DNA of 64,000 bases, taken from Escherichia phage EC150. Shown here one piece after another: positions 2,545 through 8,327 of this stretch; within the stretch, counting starts at the first letter, position 1, and each line of letters begins with the position of its first letter. The notes below the pieces were generated by a model. The model saw nothing but the letters and a program-made list of their open reading frames with translations, made no database searches and was not told where the DNA came from. Location of the stretch: sequence record ON210137.1. One strand, written 5' to 3'. The translations under genes and the position numbers were made by a program.

Positions 2545-2551
2545 TTCGAAA

Positions 2552-2580
2552 AGGTGAGCTAAATGCTTGCCTTTTTATTT
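2552..2580 (+). terminator. rho-independent terminator, copy 2 of the duplicated element
   Basis: Same stem-loop as 1039-1059 (AGGTGAGC TAAAT GCTTGCCT) followed by TTTTTATTT. Confidence 0.5.
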
Positions 2581-2622
2581 GTCTGTATTATACTTACTTC
2601 ATCAAGCAAAGGAGAGGTTATT

Positions 2623-3339: not shown

Positions 3340-3849
3340 ATGAAAATCGAACAACTCGAAGCAGTATTGGAAATGGCTGTAAAGGCAGGCGCAATCAGAA
3401 GCTATAGCCGCGAGAAGTCGGATGACGCTGCGCACTTTTGTCGCAACTTCTATATCGTCGGCAACCTTAATGACCACTACACCATCGAGTGGTATACTAA
3501 TATGATGGCTCTTAAGTCGCGCACCATGGAGCTTTGGTGTGATGATGTCTGCTTATCCAACACCCATCCATCCTACGACGTTGCGTTAGCATTCTATTAC
3601 GGAAGCCGTCAACCTGTCGCCCACATCGGTGAGAAGTATGAGCACCTTAAGGCGCGACCAGAGGAATCAATGGACGGTTGGATTTATTGGGCTGGCGTCA
3701 ACAATCCTGTTCCTGGTAAGAAGGTCATGTTTAAATTGCGCTTCGGCTATGAATCTAAATCACCTGCTCTTTCAGATGATTTGAGATGGGAGATTGTTGA
3801 CGATGCTTATGCAACTGACATCATTGCTTATCGAGTCATGGAGGAATAA
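3340..3849 (+). CDS. hypothetical protein (169 aa) sharing a C-terminal domain with 5004-5429
   Basis: C-terminal ~58 aa (W.G.NPVPGK.V.F.L..GY.SK...SD.L.W...AYRV) is paralogous to the C-terminus of the 5004-5429 product. Confidence 0.55.
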   Translation: MKIEQLEAVLEMAVKAGAIRSYSREKSDDAAHFCRNFYIVGNLNDHYTIEWYTNMMALKSRTMELWCDDVCLSNTHPSYDVALAFYYGSRQPVAHIGEKYEHLKARPEESMDGWIYWAGVNNPVPGKKVMFKLRFGYESKSPALSDDLRWEIVDDAYATDIIAYRVMEE

Positions 3850-4190
3850 TGGAAGAGCAAGAAGGCCGTGAGCTAACGTTCGACGAGCAAATGCAAGAGC
3901 TTCAGCGCACATCGTCGCTGCGCGGTAAGGTTGTTGACATCGAGGCGAGCGAATCCAACCTCACCCAGTGGCGGCTCAAGTGCACCAGCACAAGCAAGGA
4001 TATGTTAAGCTTCAAAGTCGGTCAGACTTATTTGCTTTATGAGGCAAAAGGACTTATTATTGATGGAAGGCAAATTGTCTTCACGGTAGTCAGCGGAATG
4101 CATTGGTTCGTGAAGCGTGATGTCGAGGGCCGTGACATGTTTGTCGCAGGATTTCCAGAAACAAGATTCCAATTGGAGAAGGTTAAATGA
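3849..4190 (+). CDS. hypothetical protein (113 aa)
   Basis: ORF in same-strand array; start abuts upstream stop. Confidence 0.5.
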   Translation: MEEQEGRELTFDEQMQELQRTSSLRGKVVDIEASESNLTQWRLKCTSTSKDMLSFKVGQTYLLYEAKGLIIDGRQIVFTVVSGMHWFVKRDVEGRDMFVAGFPETRFQLEKVK

Positions 4191-4519
4191 AATTGAAATG
4201 GTACGTGGACCCTGAGACGACAGGCTCATACAGGTCATTCCAACGTCGCGGCTGGCCGATTTGTTACAGCGGCAATCCCGATAAAGAAGACTGCGAGATG
4301 CTCGCCGCGATAGTAAGTCTTAATCATGACGGCTATGAAGGCCACTACGCGAGAGCAACCAACCTTCGGCTCAAGGTGCGCATCCATTTCAAGGTCGCAG
4401 GCGAGGACCGCACCGGACTCTCCAAAGAAGAGTTCAGCAGCATTGCCGAAGCAAAGGCATGGCTAAAGGCGTTCTACAAGGCCAATCCTAAATTTTATCC
4501 AACTAAGGGTGCATCATGA
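4187..4519 (+). CDS. hypothetical protein (110 aa)
   Basis: ORF in same-strand array; ATGA overlap. Confidence 0.5.
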   Translation: MKLKWYVDPETTGSYRSFQRRGWPICYSGNPDKEDCEMLAAIVSLNHDGYEGHYARATNLRLKVRIHFKVAGEDRTGLSKEEFSSIAEAKAWLKAFYKANPKFYPTKGAS

Positions 4520-5007
4520 CTAACAAAACGCAACGCATCAATTTTGAAGGTAAAGAATACGAAATAGACGCTCGTGCAAGATTCGTTGCGCGCGATTCTA
4601 ACGGAACCATCTGGGCGTATGAGGGAAAGCCTGCATGGAACGATTGGTGCGGCCAGTGGGGATATGCAATTGGCGATTCACTTTGGTGTAAGCAAATTGG
4701 TGATGGAAAGATGTTCAAAGAGAATAAACCATCATCACGTGATTCATTGAAGGAAGTCGAATCAATCAAAATCCAAGACCAAGCGCCATCGACAGATAAC
4801 CAATACGCAGTCGGGCAACGTGACATCGAGCAACTCGACGAGGGCGGCTATTATACGCGCCACATCTATGCCATGACGCATGAAGGACTTTGCAGCAAGT
4901 CGGACATCGCCGCTGAACTGGCCCATCGTGACTTACAAATCGACCTTCTCAAGATAGAAGTGCAGAACTTACGAAACACCCTGTTAAATACTTGGAGCTT
5001 AAAATGA
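4516..5007 (+). CDS. hypothetical protein (163 aa)
   Basis: ORF in same-strand array; ATGA overlap. Confidence 0.5.
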   Translation: MTNKTQRINFEGKEYEIDARARFVARDSNGTIWAYEGKPAWNDWCGQWGYAIGDSLWCKQIGDGKMFKENKPSSRDSLKEVESIKIQDQAPSTDNQYAVGQRDIEQLDEGGYYTRHIYAMTHEGLCSKSDIAAELAHRDLQIDLLKIEVQNLRNTLLNTWSLK

Positions 5008-5429
5008 TACAACGTTACGACCTGACATATGATGTGGTATCAGAAGATTGCTCCATCACTCCCGTTCCAGAGAGTCATGAAGGACGTTTTGTTGCATATG
5101 AGGACTATGCCGCGCTGGAAGCGAAATACAGTGAAGCGCAACGCGAGTTGGTTGCATTACGCTCACAGGTCCGTGATGCATCGGTGCTTGTTAAGCAGTT
5201 GCACGACGTTGTTGCTACTATAGGCGTGGATGATGATGCGCCGAAGGAGGAAGCGTGGACCGTGTGGCTTGGTGGCGCGAATCCGGTGCCTGGGAAGATG
5301 GTTGAGTTTGAATTACTCAACGGTTATAAATCAAAAGAGGCCGTCCCTTCGGATAATTTGAACTGGGGTGCAGTGGCAAGCCCGACTGGCGCAAAGATTG
5401 TTGCTTATCGGGTCGTTAAGGAGGGGTGA
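5004..5429 (+). CDS. hypothetical protein (141 aa) sharing a C-terminal domain with 3340-3849
   Basis: Internal ATG overlapping upstream stop, GGAG 6 nt upstream; C-terminal ~58 aa paralogous to 3340-3849 product. Confidence 0.55.
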   Translation: MIQRYDLTYDVVSEDCSITPVPESHEGRFVAYEDYAALEAKYSEAQRELVALRSQVRDASVLVKQLHDVVATIGVDDDAPKEEAWTVWLGGANPVPGKMVEFELLNGYKSKEAVPSDNLNWGAVASPTGAKIVAYRVVKEG

Positions 5430-5962
5430 TGGGCGGCTTTTGGCGTAAAGCTAAATACTCTAAAGACTTGCATTACTTCTTGGATAATGAAGGCATAAGT
5501 ATATGTGGTAGGTACAGAAGGGATAATGAATCAGCGTCGCAAAGTAATAAGGCTGAATGGTTACTCAAGGAAGAATGCAAAGTTTGCCGCAAACGTTTTT
5601 GTGACAAAACTAGCATAACTGATTACATAAAGGAGCTTAGAAAAAGATGTAAAAGCCCGCAAGAGTTTGCCATAGCTCTTTGGGATGATCACCCTGAGTT
5701 GAGAAGCGAATGGTTAAAGACTGATGCAATCAATTATATCTTCAAATCGAAATACAGGACGACAGCAAGATATAAAATGGATGAAGCAGTAATTCAGAAG
5801 GTATTTTCTTATTGGAGGGATACAGTCGATATTGTGAAAATAAAGAAATACCAAAACGAAGTGCTGCTGGAATTGGAGAGGATTGGCTATAAAGTCACCA
5901 ATAAAATGATAAAAGAAGAAATAAAAAGGAGAACGGAAAAGGGACTGATGCCTAAGATATAG
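5426..5962 (+). CDS. hypothetical basic Cys-containing protein (178 aa)
   Basis: AT-rich coding region whose composition differs from neighbours; no recognisable domain. Confidence 0.45.
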   Translation: MMGGFWRKAKYSKDLHYFLDNEGISICGRYRRDNESASQSNKAEWLLKEECKVCRKRFCDKTSITDYIKELRKRCKSPQEFAIALWDDHPELRSEWLKTDAINYIFKSKYRTTARYKMDEAVIQKVFSYWRDTVDIVKIKKYQNEVLLELERIGYKVTNKMIKEEIKRRTEKGLMPKI

Positions 5963-6209
5963 TGAATAAACGAACACTGTTTACGTGTTTTGAAGAATGG
6001 AATGTGTGCAATGGGTCGCTTTATGCGGCCTTTTGTCGTTTGGGTCGTGTTTTGCGATGGAATAATTATGATGAGGTGTTTTATTTATTGATTGTGCGGA
6101 AATATTTAGAAATATATTTCATAGGTCGTGTCTATTGGTCCGTGGTGTTTGTTAGATTATATCTATGGATTGAAATTTTAGTGTCGTGAAACGTGGTGTT
6201 TGAACACAT

Positions 6210-6746: not shown

Positions 6747-6774
6747 GTTCATTCATTGTATAATTCACACTATT

Positions 6775-7981
6775 AATTTGCACTATGGGATTTGCACTAT
6801 GAGTCAAGATTATGTAGCAATGCCTGAAGACTTTGAAGACCCGCGATTTGCAGAGCATAATCAGGCATTATTCGATGAGTTCATTGACCTTGTTATTCAG
6901 GGCCATGACATGCGCGCAGCTTTTGCACTAGTATTTGGCATGGAGGTTGCGACCGATAACTACACTGGCCAGCGAGTCCTCTGCACGCAACGCAATCCGT
7001 ACTACAAGATGCGCTACAAAAAGCGTATGGAAGAGATGCCATTGAAGGAATTGTGGAGCGTAAAGAGTTCCATCCACAATTTAGTGAAGCTTGTGCGTGA
7101 TCCAGAAGTCGCGGCGTCAGCCAAGCTTAATGCCATTCGTGAACTGAATATCATCTACGGCATCACGATGATTGATGAGAATGGCAATAGTAAAATGGGC
7201 CGTTCCATGGACGATTTCTACAAGGATTTTGGAGAGGCAGCCAAAGAGGGTGAGCAATTCTCCCGCCACTAGCCAATTTGCACTATAAAACGGCCCTAGA
7301 ACACATTTTCTCCACTTCTAGGGCCATCGGTAATACGACGGGGAAGGTTACAACCATAAACGCGTTAGAAAGTGTATTATTATAAGTCATCTTTTAGTCA
7401 CTTTACGTAACAATTTACGACCTTCCGCCGTCCAGTCGAACGACTCCACCAGCAGATTTGCACTATAACCTAAGACGATGCGCCCTTTCTCGTTATCGAC
7501 CCGCCAACAAGTCTCGAATAGCATTCGATTTGCACTATTAACTATCGCCGCAACGCGCGCTGGGTAAGCGCAATTTGCACTATGGTCGTAAAGGGATAAG
7601 GTGCGACCACTTCCGATGGACAACGTAGCGATGAGAATAAGCGTATTCATAAGCCACCAATTTGCACTATGAAAAGCGACCCCGAAGGGCCGCCATTCGA
7701 TTAGATGATCTGGAATGTGTATGACTTGTTGCCGAACTCGAAGTTCAAGCGCCCAGCTTCCTTAAGCTTCATGCGGAAGCGAATGTGCTTGCTATCCGGT
7801 AATCCCAGCGCGATGAAAGCTACGCGGACCGATTTGAACTCGCCTACACCCTCGACCATAACGCCGTTACGGGTGAGACGCTTTTGCGCCACTTCCTTAT
7901 TATCCCAACTTTTTGCAATGCCTTCGCTATTCGAACGGCGATGGGAAGAAGTTCCATTTTGCACTACGCAATTTGCACTAT
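6775..7981 (+). repeat. array of 9 same-orientation copies of an AATTTGCACTAT-like 11-12-mer
   Basis: Copies at 6775, 6790, 7275, 7456, 7528, 7572, 7659, 7956 and 7970; irregular spacing; two copies overlap the start of the 6799 gene. Confidence 0.6.
6799..7272 (+). CDS. hypothetical protein (157 aa), possible regulatory or DNA-binding protein
   Basis: ATG embedded in a motif copy and downstream of the near-consensus promoter; function is inference only. Confidence 0.5.
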   Translation: MSQDYVAMPEDFEDPRFAEHNQALFDEFIDLVIQGHDMRAAFALVFGMEVATDNYTGQRVLCTQRNPYYKMRYKKRMEEMPLKELWSVKSSIHNLVKLVRDPEVAASAKLNAIRELNIIYGITMIDENGNSKMGRSMDDFYKDFGEAAKEGEQFSRH

Positions 7982-8327
7982 CGTTTAGGCCGCTCTTAAC
8001 GAAGGCTTCATACTCTTCGTCGGTCATCGCGTCGAGTTCTTCCTGAGTCGGCTCAGACTTTTTAACGACCGCACGCGCCTTATGCGTTTTTACATCGCTG
8101 GGCACTTCCTCGCGCGGCTTCGCGTCGGGAATGGGCGATTCGTTGGACGGCTCATCGAGCGCGTTCAAGGACTCGATTAACGCGATTACGCGAGTCTCGG
8201 CGGTCCGGCGGTCCGCGAACTTTTTAATCGGCTTCGAACCGGAATTTGCGTTGTAAAATGCAACGAGGTCGGCGGTCTTAGTTGCGATAACGTCGCCGCT
8301 AGTCGAGAAGCGATTTAAGCTAACCAT
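7701..8327 (-). CDS. hypothetical protein (208 aa)
   Basis: AGGAG 6-7 nt upstream of start at 8327; 5' half CpG-rich like the adjacent island; 3' part overlaps two motif copies so extent is uncertain. Confidence 0.5.
   Translation of the reverse strand: MVSLNRFSTSGDVIATKTADLVAFYNANSGSKPIKKFADRRTAETRVIALIESLNALDEPSNESPIPDAKPREEVPSDVKTHKARAVVKKSEPTQEELDAMTDEEYEAFVKSGLNDSANCVVQNGTSSHRRSNSEGIAKSWDNKEVAQKRLTRNGVMVEGVGEFKSVRVAFIALGLPDSKHIRFRMKLKEAGRLNFEFGNKSYTFQII

Follow-up and report, generated by a model that had tools for sequence, protein, structure and literature searches.

Introduction

Small portable domains are well known from the accessory genes of phages. One of them, DUF551 (PF04448), is found at the C-terminus of Ea22 variant 2, in YfdS of CPS-53 and in fusions to dATP/dGTP pyrophosphohydrolase. 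Another accessory protein, Ea22 of lambda, is made early and has no known partner (PMC10834534). Exchange of domains has also been described in Wifcevirus, where the BASEL paper reports swapping of the receptor-binding domains (RBDs) of the tail fibres (10.1101/2024.09.12.612763). In this study, we analyzed a stretch of 64,000 nucleotides from Escherichia phage EC150 (ON210137.1; hereafter the window), a Wifcevirus-type E. coli myophage, in which the products of two genes, gene A (3340..3849) and gene B (5004..5429), end in a common domain of 58 residues. The region is 86-95% identical to RCIP0319, Ro157lw, Bas98/99/101, vB_Eco4M-7, FEC19 and WFH. We are highly confident that the shared part is a homologous domain, that it is portable in the manner of a cassette and that it belongs to a large, uncurated family. 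We further propose, as a reading that has about an even chance of being right, that it is an exchangeable recognition module with a variable intracellular partner.

A homologous C-terminal domain in two otherwise unrelated proteins

A sequence-only reading of this region, whose quoted peptides are exact and whose two open reading frames (ORFs) are present as described, had held that the C-termini of the two products are homologous while their N-terminal parts differ, and had named an alignment without statistical significance as the outcome that would speak against this. BLASTP gives one significant segment between the two products (gene A residues 112-169 against gene B residues 83-140; 27/58 identical, 34/58 positive, ungapped, E = 7e-16), so the homology stands. 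Outside these 58 residues there is no match with E < 5, and the N-terminal parts are thus considered unrelated. Both copies score 125-131 bits against a hidden Markov model (HMM) seeded with the two of them, and no third copy was found when all six frames of the 64 kb were searched with this model, the runner-up having E ~8. The DNA of the two domain-coding stretches is ~60% identical with a single common repeat, 22 nt encoding IAYRV, which argues for old paralogy and not for recent duplication.

Gene A, which like all features given here lies on the + strand, is listed among the ORFs as a 169-residue product starting with ATG. It consists of an N-terminal domain (residues 1-101; 3340..3642) that equals phrog_21861, a linker (residues 102-111; 3643..3672) that is predicted to be disordered (predicted local distance difference test, pLDDT, < 50 for residues 102-110) and that differs in length and sequence across aligned homologs, and copy 1 of the shared domain (residues 112-169; 3673..3846), recognized by BLASTP, by HMM and by phrog_9174, 11995 and 26870. 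Its AlphaFold2 (AF2) model has two domains (pLDDT 81.6). The product is 100% identical to a hypothetical protein of phage EC150, and its 54 homologs all come from Wifcevirus-type contigs of ~68 kb.

Gene B encodes 141 residues. A short module at the N-terminus is followed by what is probably a coiled coil, and a linker then leads to copy 2 of the shared domain (residues 83-141; 5250..5426), seen by BLASTP, HMM and AF2. The central segment at residues 37-72 (ALEAKYSEAQRELVALRSQVRDASVLVKQLHDVVAT; 5112..5219) is helix-prone and heptad-like on inspection, and is probably the coiled coil. All 134 homologs, each of them Wifcevirus-type, start at the ATG that corresponds to position 5004 (MIQRYD...). 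In the window, this ATG shares the sequence ATGA with the stop codon of the ORF before it; the mechanical ORF list gives TTG 4992. The N-terminal half of the gene (5004-5250) is mosaic too, as seen in homologs such as P0014, P0015 and P0075, with two alternative N-termini, two alternative coiled-coil versions and insertions that repeat a 'G-x-Y-V-x-F-x-D-Y-x-A-L-E-A-K' unit.

To describe the domain beyond the window, we used a profile of 21 diverse Wifcevirus domain copies (A2). With this alignment, AF2 models copy 2 as a small beta domain (pLDDT 86.4, predicted template modelling score 0.72) with strands at about residues 4-5, 16-22, 27, 32-33 and 50-58, and with lower confidence at residues 41-50, the most variable loop. 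A Foldseek search of BFVD returned uncharacterised phage proteins only. When PDB chains were searched by sequence, the profiles of the domain and of gene A and the sequence of gene B matched only a designed TIM barrel, consensus tetratricopeptide repeats and NrdI (E >= 3e-4 to 0.5), all of which were discarded as spurious.

A large family without a curated model

An exhaustive HMMER search with A2 against 1.84 billion cluster representatives retrieved 3,635 at E <= 1e-3 and 293 at E <= 1e-10, so that the two copies belong to a very large family of all-beta domains of ~55 residues (55-59 profile positions) in phages and prophages. The family consensus is [D/E]GWIxWxGGE[C/N]PVPG..VEV+LR[D/N]G.......[A/S]..LRW.H.G...DI[V/I]AYRVV. 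The scaffold within it runs from W-x2-W-x-G-G-x-[C/N]-P-V-P-G through a V-x-V strand and a W to D-I-[I/V]-A-Y-R-V, with two variable loop regions between. When W3, W6, G8-G9, P12, V13, V18, W39, I50, Y53 and R54 were taken as scaffold residues, copy 2 keeps all of them and copy 1 all but G9, which is V (AGVNNPVPG).

Architectures were counted in the best 145 of the 3,635 representatives. The domain sits at the C-terminus of 71 proteins, at the N-terminus of 36 and within 20, and makes up the whole protein in 18; there are one, two, three, four or five copies in 46, 75, 17, 6 and 1 proteins, respectively. It thus also occurs as stand-alone proteins of 59-70 residues and as pure tandem arrays. 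These counts bear out the shared module of the sequence-only reading, as a portable, autonomous domain joined to unrelated N-terminal parts. The further claim that it is a targeting module placed on effector domains found no support, since none of the attached parts was recognized as an effector fold and the domain can stand by itself. Members are mostly soluble, with a transmembrane-like segment in 3/145, and the domain is mildly acidic with a median isoelectric point of 5.2, which makes a classical DNA-binding or membrane role unlikely.

By tblastn, the domain is found in Wifcevirus, rV5-like phages, Salmonella Jerseyvirus SS3e, Klebsiella and Pseudomonas siphophages, Burkholderia phages Bcep781 and BcepNY3, Rhizobium phage 16-3, and Caulobacter and Sinorhizobium phages, and is unannotated throughout. 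In bacterial genomes it occurs in prophages of alpha-, beta- and gamma-proteobacteria, and also in metagenome-assembled genomes of other phyla. Four PHROGs of unknown function (phrog_9174, 11995, 26870 and 16943) match one or both window proteins (E 5e-8 to 4e-4). These are clusters of whole proteins, in which the domain is N-terminal (9174) or C-terminal (11995, 16943), and none of the four delimits the domain itself or supplies a function. No model for the domain was found in scans of the window proteins with Pfam, NCBIfam and PADLOC, nor in a Pfam scan of 144 full-length members and 108 isolated domain copies; neither the six gene-block proteins nor four family members matched PADLOC-DB at E <= 0.01. 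Every annotated homolog of genes A and B is a 'hypothetical protein'.

That the likeness of the two C-termini is an artefact of chance or composition, with no real shared domain behind it, can be given a negligible probability. It is excluded by the ungapped pairwise E value, by the thousands of relatives that an independent profile retrieves in the same motif order and by the PHROG profiles (9174 and 11995) that match both copies, and the two copies also share their secondary-structure pattern in independent AF2 models.

The Pfam scan of the full-length members also identified recurrent partners: dGTP_diPhyd_N (4 members), DUF3310 (4), DUF6378 (4) and dATP-dGTP_PPHyd (1), with RHH as a further partner in small numbers. 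The literature on DUF3310 offers nothing informative for the domain.

Two observations were made on individual members. Two large high-GC proteins, P0209 (915 aa) and P0211 (1031 aa, from a 67-kb contig), have three domain copies in or near the C-terminal third and a long conserved N-terminal region without a Pfam match, in which an ELEVY...ERDGSL...GFEVVT motif, judged by eye, is perhaps reminiscent of amidoligase-type enzymes. In Ottowia flava (L007:2168-3613), an IS605 OrfB/TnpB-type gene (Cas12f1-like TNB domain) lies directly upstream of a domain-bearing ORF, and a phage-type integrase lies ~2 kb downstream.

Comparison with DUF551 and Ea22

The portable C-terminal domains of lambdoid accessory proteins, namely DUF551 and the Ea22 architecture, are the best functional analogue of the domain. 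DUF551 has a similar size of ~60 residues, starts with G-W-I, has no known function, occupies the ends of unrelated proteins encoded in early or nin-type accessory regions, and has the same kind of fusion partners, the dATP/dGTP pyrophosphohydrolase domains (PMC10834534). The two can also stand side by side. A 190-residue nin-region protein of a Candidatus Pantoea haifensis lambdoid prophage (L009:3635-4207), encoded between the lambda replication protein P and NinB homologs, has DUF551 followed by the shared domain, and in Pantoea phage AH01 the shared domain (gp2) and DUF551 (gp4) are encoded by neighbouring genes. However, DUF551 ends in THWMPLPxPP while the shared domain ends in DI[I/V]AYRV. 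The Pfam DUF551 model (gathering threshold 22 bits) has no match at E <= 1 among the window proteins, nor among 108 diverse domain instances, and a DUF551 protein appears at rank 50 of the BFVD fold search with E = 0.22. Homology with DUF551 was rejected after hhalign gave a probability of 0.6% over 5 aligned columns, with the DUF551 side of the comparison being shallow (6 sequences) and the test correspondingly weak.

The likeness to Ea22 (Ead_Ea22, PF13935) is one of architecture, since gene B and AH01 gp2 share its layout of a short N-terminus, a coiled coil (a probable one in gene B) and a C-terminal domain that is swapped between variants, and the C-terminal domains are acidic in both families (PMC10834534). 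Ea22-like proteins are marked by a tetrameric coiled coil with a decoupled C-terminal domain, for which the comparison with gene B covered the sequence of residues 37-72. In contrast to the beta domain described here, the C-terminal domain of lambda Ea22 is a mixed alpha/beta dimer, and gene B matches no Pfam family at E <= 1, Ead_Ea22 included. A pro-lysogenic role is not applicable here because the phage that carries genes A and B is virulent.

Cassette behaviour within Wifcevirus

In an alignment of 34 gene A homologs, a near-invariant N-terminal domain is followed by the variable linker, the conserved GW.xW.GG.NPVPGK, a highly variable middle and the conserved DIIAYRVVEE. Mean column entropy is 0.23 bits for the gene A N-terminal domain and 0.2-0.6 bits for the flanks of the shared domain, which are conserved and locus-specific within Wifcevirus, and reaches 1.5-1.6 bits in the middle of ~33 residues at both loci. 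When 177 Wifcevirus domain instances were grouped by their middle segments (65% identity, single linkage), 16 clusters were obtained, two of which span both loci: one has 16 gene A and 4 gene B members, the other 40 single-copy gene B members and 1 gene A member. In phage WFH, the gene B 5′ flank is B-type (56/60 identical in DNA to window gene B) while the middle is A-type (61/69 identical to window gene A vs 49/69 to window gene B), which makes this gene an inter-locus recombinant. No two of four genomes compared carry the same allele pair, the alleles being reassorted among them. Tandem pairs of the domain occur in seven gene B homologs, and the reading frame is kept across the recombination joints.

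Losses are seen as well. At least one intact copy is present in 168/175 Wifcevirus-type homologs retrieved for the two genes, with no exception at gene B. The other seven (P0167, P0168, P0170-P0174) are all gene A products in which a truncation or frameshift lies ahead of the domain or within it. One of these, P0171, frameshifted inside the domain, was seen on 12 contigs, and P0200 is a possible downstream domain-only remnant. P0001 is a domain-only product of 70 residues, in which a deletion has brought the gene B domain directly behind six codons from the start of ORF 4187. The exchanged middles, the tandem copies and the losses together indicate that the domain acts as an exchangeable, duplicable and losable cassette.

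The cassette could also be functionally neutral mosaic baggage, a common, easily folding phage module that illegitimate and homologous recombination have spread in accessory regions and whose presence on both proteins has no shared functional meaning. Loss, frameshift and fission are frequent at locus A, the deletion in P0001 fuses the domain to another start, and the whole gene block is mosaic among Wifcevirus genomes. Against this, the scaffold residues are retained across thousands of clusters and several phyla, an intact copy is kept in nearly all homologs, every gene B homolog included, and frames survive the joints. We therefore consider neutral baggage an improbable explanation.

Conserved flanks, a hypervariable centre and the horizontal exchange of that centre are also features of tail-fibre RBDs and of the variable regions of diversity-generating retroelements (DGRs). 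Unlike tail-fibre RBDs, genes A and B lie in a small-ORF accessory block and not in the tail module. The window has just two divergent copies (~60% DNA identity) and no near-identical template, on which ground both a DGR mechanism and silent cassettes were rejected for it; no search for a reverse transcriptase was made.

Proposed role of the domain

The conserved frame with hypervariable loops, the multivalency and the position in an accessory block led us to the reading of the domain as an exchangeable recognition module, for which we infer a binding function and an intracellular target. The conserved frame would present the variable loops to a variable partner in the infected cell, for example a host or defence component. 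Valency would be supplied by tandem copies or by the coiled-coil stalk of gene B, and the conserved N-terminal domain of gene A would carry a separate, constant function. By recombination, the ~33-residue middles have passed from one locus to the other and from phage to phage, and they have been doubled into tandem pairs or deleted.

The domain-only proteins and the pure arrays of up to five copies suggest that the domain may be the working part and not an address label. As the main alternative, it could then be the effector itself, either a small ligand- or nucleotide-binding unit or a sponge or decoy, working alone or in multivalent arrays. The N-terminal part would serve just to oligomerise the protein in gene B, and in gene A it would have a second function of its own. 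The N-terminal part of gene B, which resembles a stalk and not an enzyme, would suit such a role. So would the recurrent fusions associated with NTP pyrophosphohydrolases (13 Pfam hits among 144 proteins) and the polar and aromatic positions that are semi-conserved across the family (R23 82%, H41 63%, D49 80%, Y53 91%, R54 86%). However, R23 and H41 are replaced in the gene B copy and H41 in the gene A copy, which makes a single conserved ligand site doubtful for the window copies. The strong allelic diversity of the loops suits variable macromolecular targets better than one small ligand, and there is no similarity to known sponge families or to any PDB entry. On balance, we regard a role of the domain as the effector itself as possible but rather unlikely.

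The recognition-module reading itself has several points against it. The diversity of the middles could reflect old alleles imported from a huge pool under weak constraint, and not selection for new specificities. The semi-conserved R23, H41, D49 and R54 could mean a common small ligand, and not variable targets. About 13% of the gene A cluster representatives (7/54) lack an intact domain through truncation or frameshift, thus the domain is dispensable at locus A. The source names of all family members found are 'hypothetical', and a ligand, partner or phenotype is known for none. Evidence of expression is thin: for vB_Eco4M-7_16, the ortholog of gene B in vB_Eco4M-7, mass spectrometry of a lysate preparation yielded 2 peptides, 24% coverage and a score of 4.64 (PMC7048862, Table 1). 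Since that sample also held non-structural proteins such as a helicase, the detection shows expression and not location (PMC7048862). Beyond this list, the literature on Wifcevirus (the BASEL expansion and vB_Eco4M-7) is silent on genes A and B, and no data on their expression timing were found.

A more speculative form of the proposal, to which we assign a low probability, is an intracellular 'antibody-like' scaffold. Here a constant beta frame with two hypervariable loops would be expressed from two sites (A and B), loop cassettes would be shuffled between these sites and with other phages, and the resulting repertoire would bind and neutralise variable host immunity proteins or evade their sensing.

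Gene block and neighboring elements

Genes A and B belong to a block of small same-strand ORFs with overlapping starts and stops (3340-3849, 3849-4190, 4187-4519, 4516-5007, 5004-5429 and 5426-5962). The domain is absent by HMM from the three ORFs between them (3849..5007), and the content of this stretch differs among Wifcevirus genomes. A hairpin with a sigma-70-like promoter element upstream of the block (2546..2594) and a terminator-like hairpin after its last ORF (6013..6031) may be the start and end of a transcription unit. The gene layout suggests co-transcription and early timing of the block. The terms 'early' and 'host takeover', used in the sequence-only reading, rest solely on the place of the two genes in this block, and we do not take them as shown.

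The upstream hairpin belongs to a 38-nt element (AAAAGGTGAGCTAAATGCTTGCCTTTT) that is found at 1033-1082 and 2546-2594 with 89% identity, each time overlapping a promoter-like TTGCCT-16/17-TATACT; the WFH record labels the equivalent hairpin a terminator. The element would thus be a terminator/promoter cassette, present twice and dividing the block of small ORFs. A 28-residue motif is common to the N-terminus of the 4516-5007 product (residues 4-85; matches to phrog_1972, 11307 and 23941) and the 1276-1683 product (RFVARDSNGTIWAYEGKP vs RYVAIDNNGLVHCYSERP; pairwise E = 5e-4), possibly a second shared module. Further downstream, at 6772-7984, the 11-mer ATTTGCACTAT or close variants of it form at least 8 direct repeats, including two adjacent pairs. 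Small ORFs on the + strand here give way to ORFs 7387-8327 on the - strand. This array looks like a set of binding sites, such as an operator, an iteron or a phage-specific promoter motif.

Implications for phage accessory genes

The domain is an uncurated yet abundant addition to the known class of portable phage accessory domains: its members fill thousands of clusters and extend over several bacterial phyla, but neither Pfam and NCBIfam nor PDB has an entry for it. The combination of a conserved frame with a hypervariable centre that is exchanged between two loci usually marks a molecular arms race, and the cassette behaviour in Wifcevirus is possibly driven by one. If the antibody-like scaffold were to prove true, the thousands of relatives would represent a general, unnamed class of counter-defence recognition modules. 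As a small, defined and probably easily expressed target, the domain is suited to structure determination and to partner screens, and tractable Wifceviruses that infect E. coli K-12 are available in the BASEL collection (Bas98-101). Should a partner be found, a sizeable piece of phage 'dark matter' would become annotated; otherwise, the domain would be a case of ordinary mosaicism.

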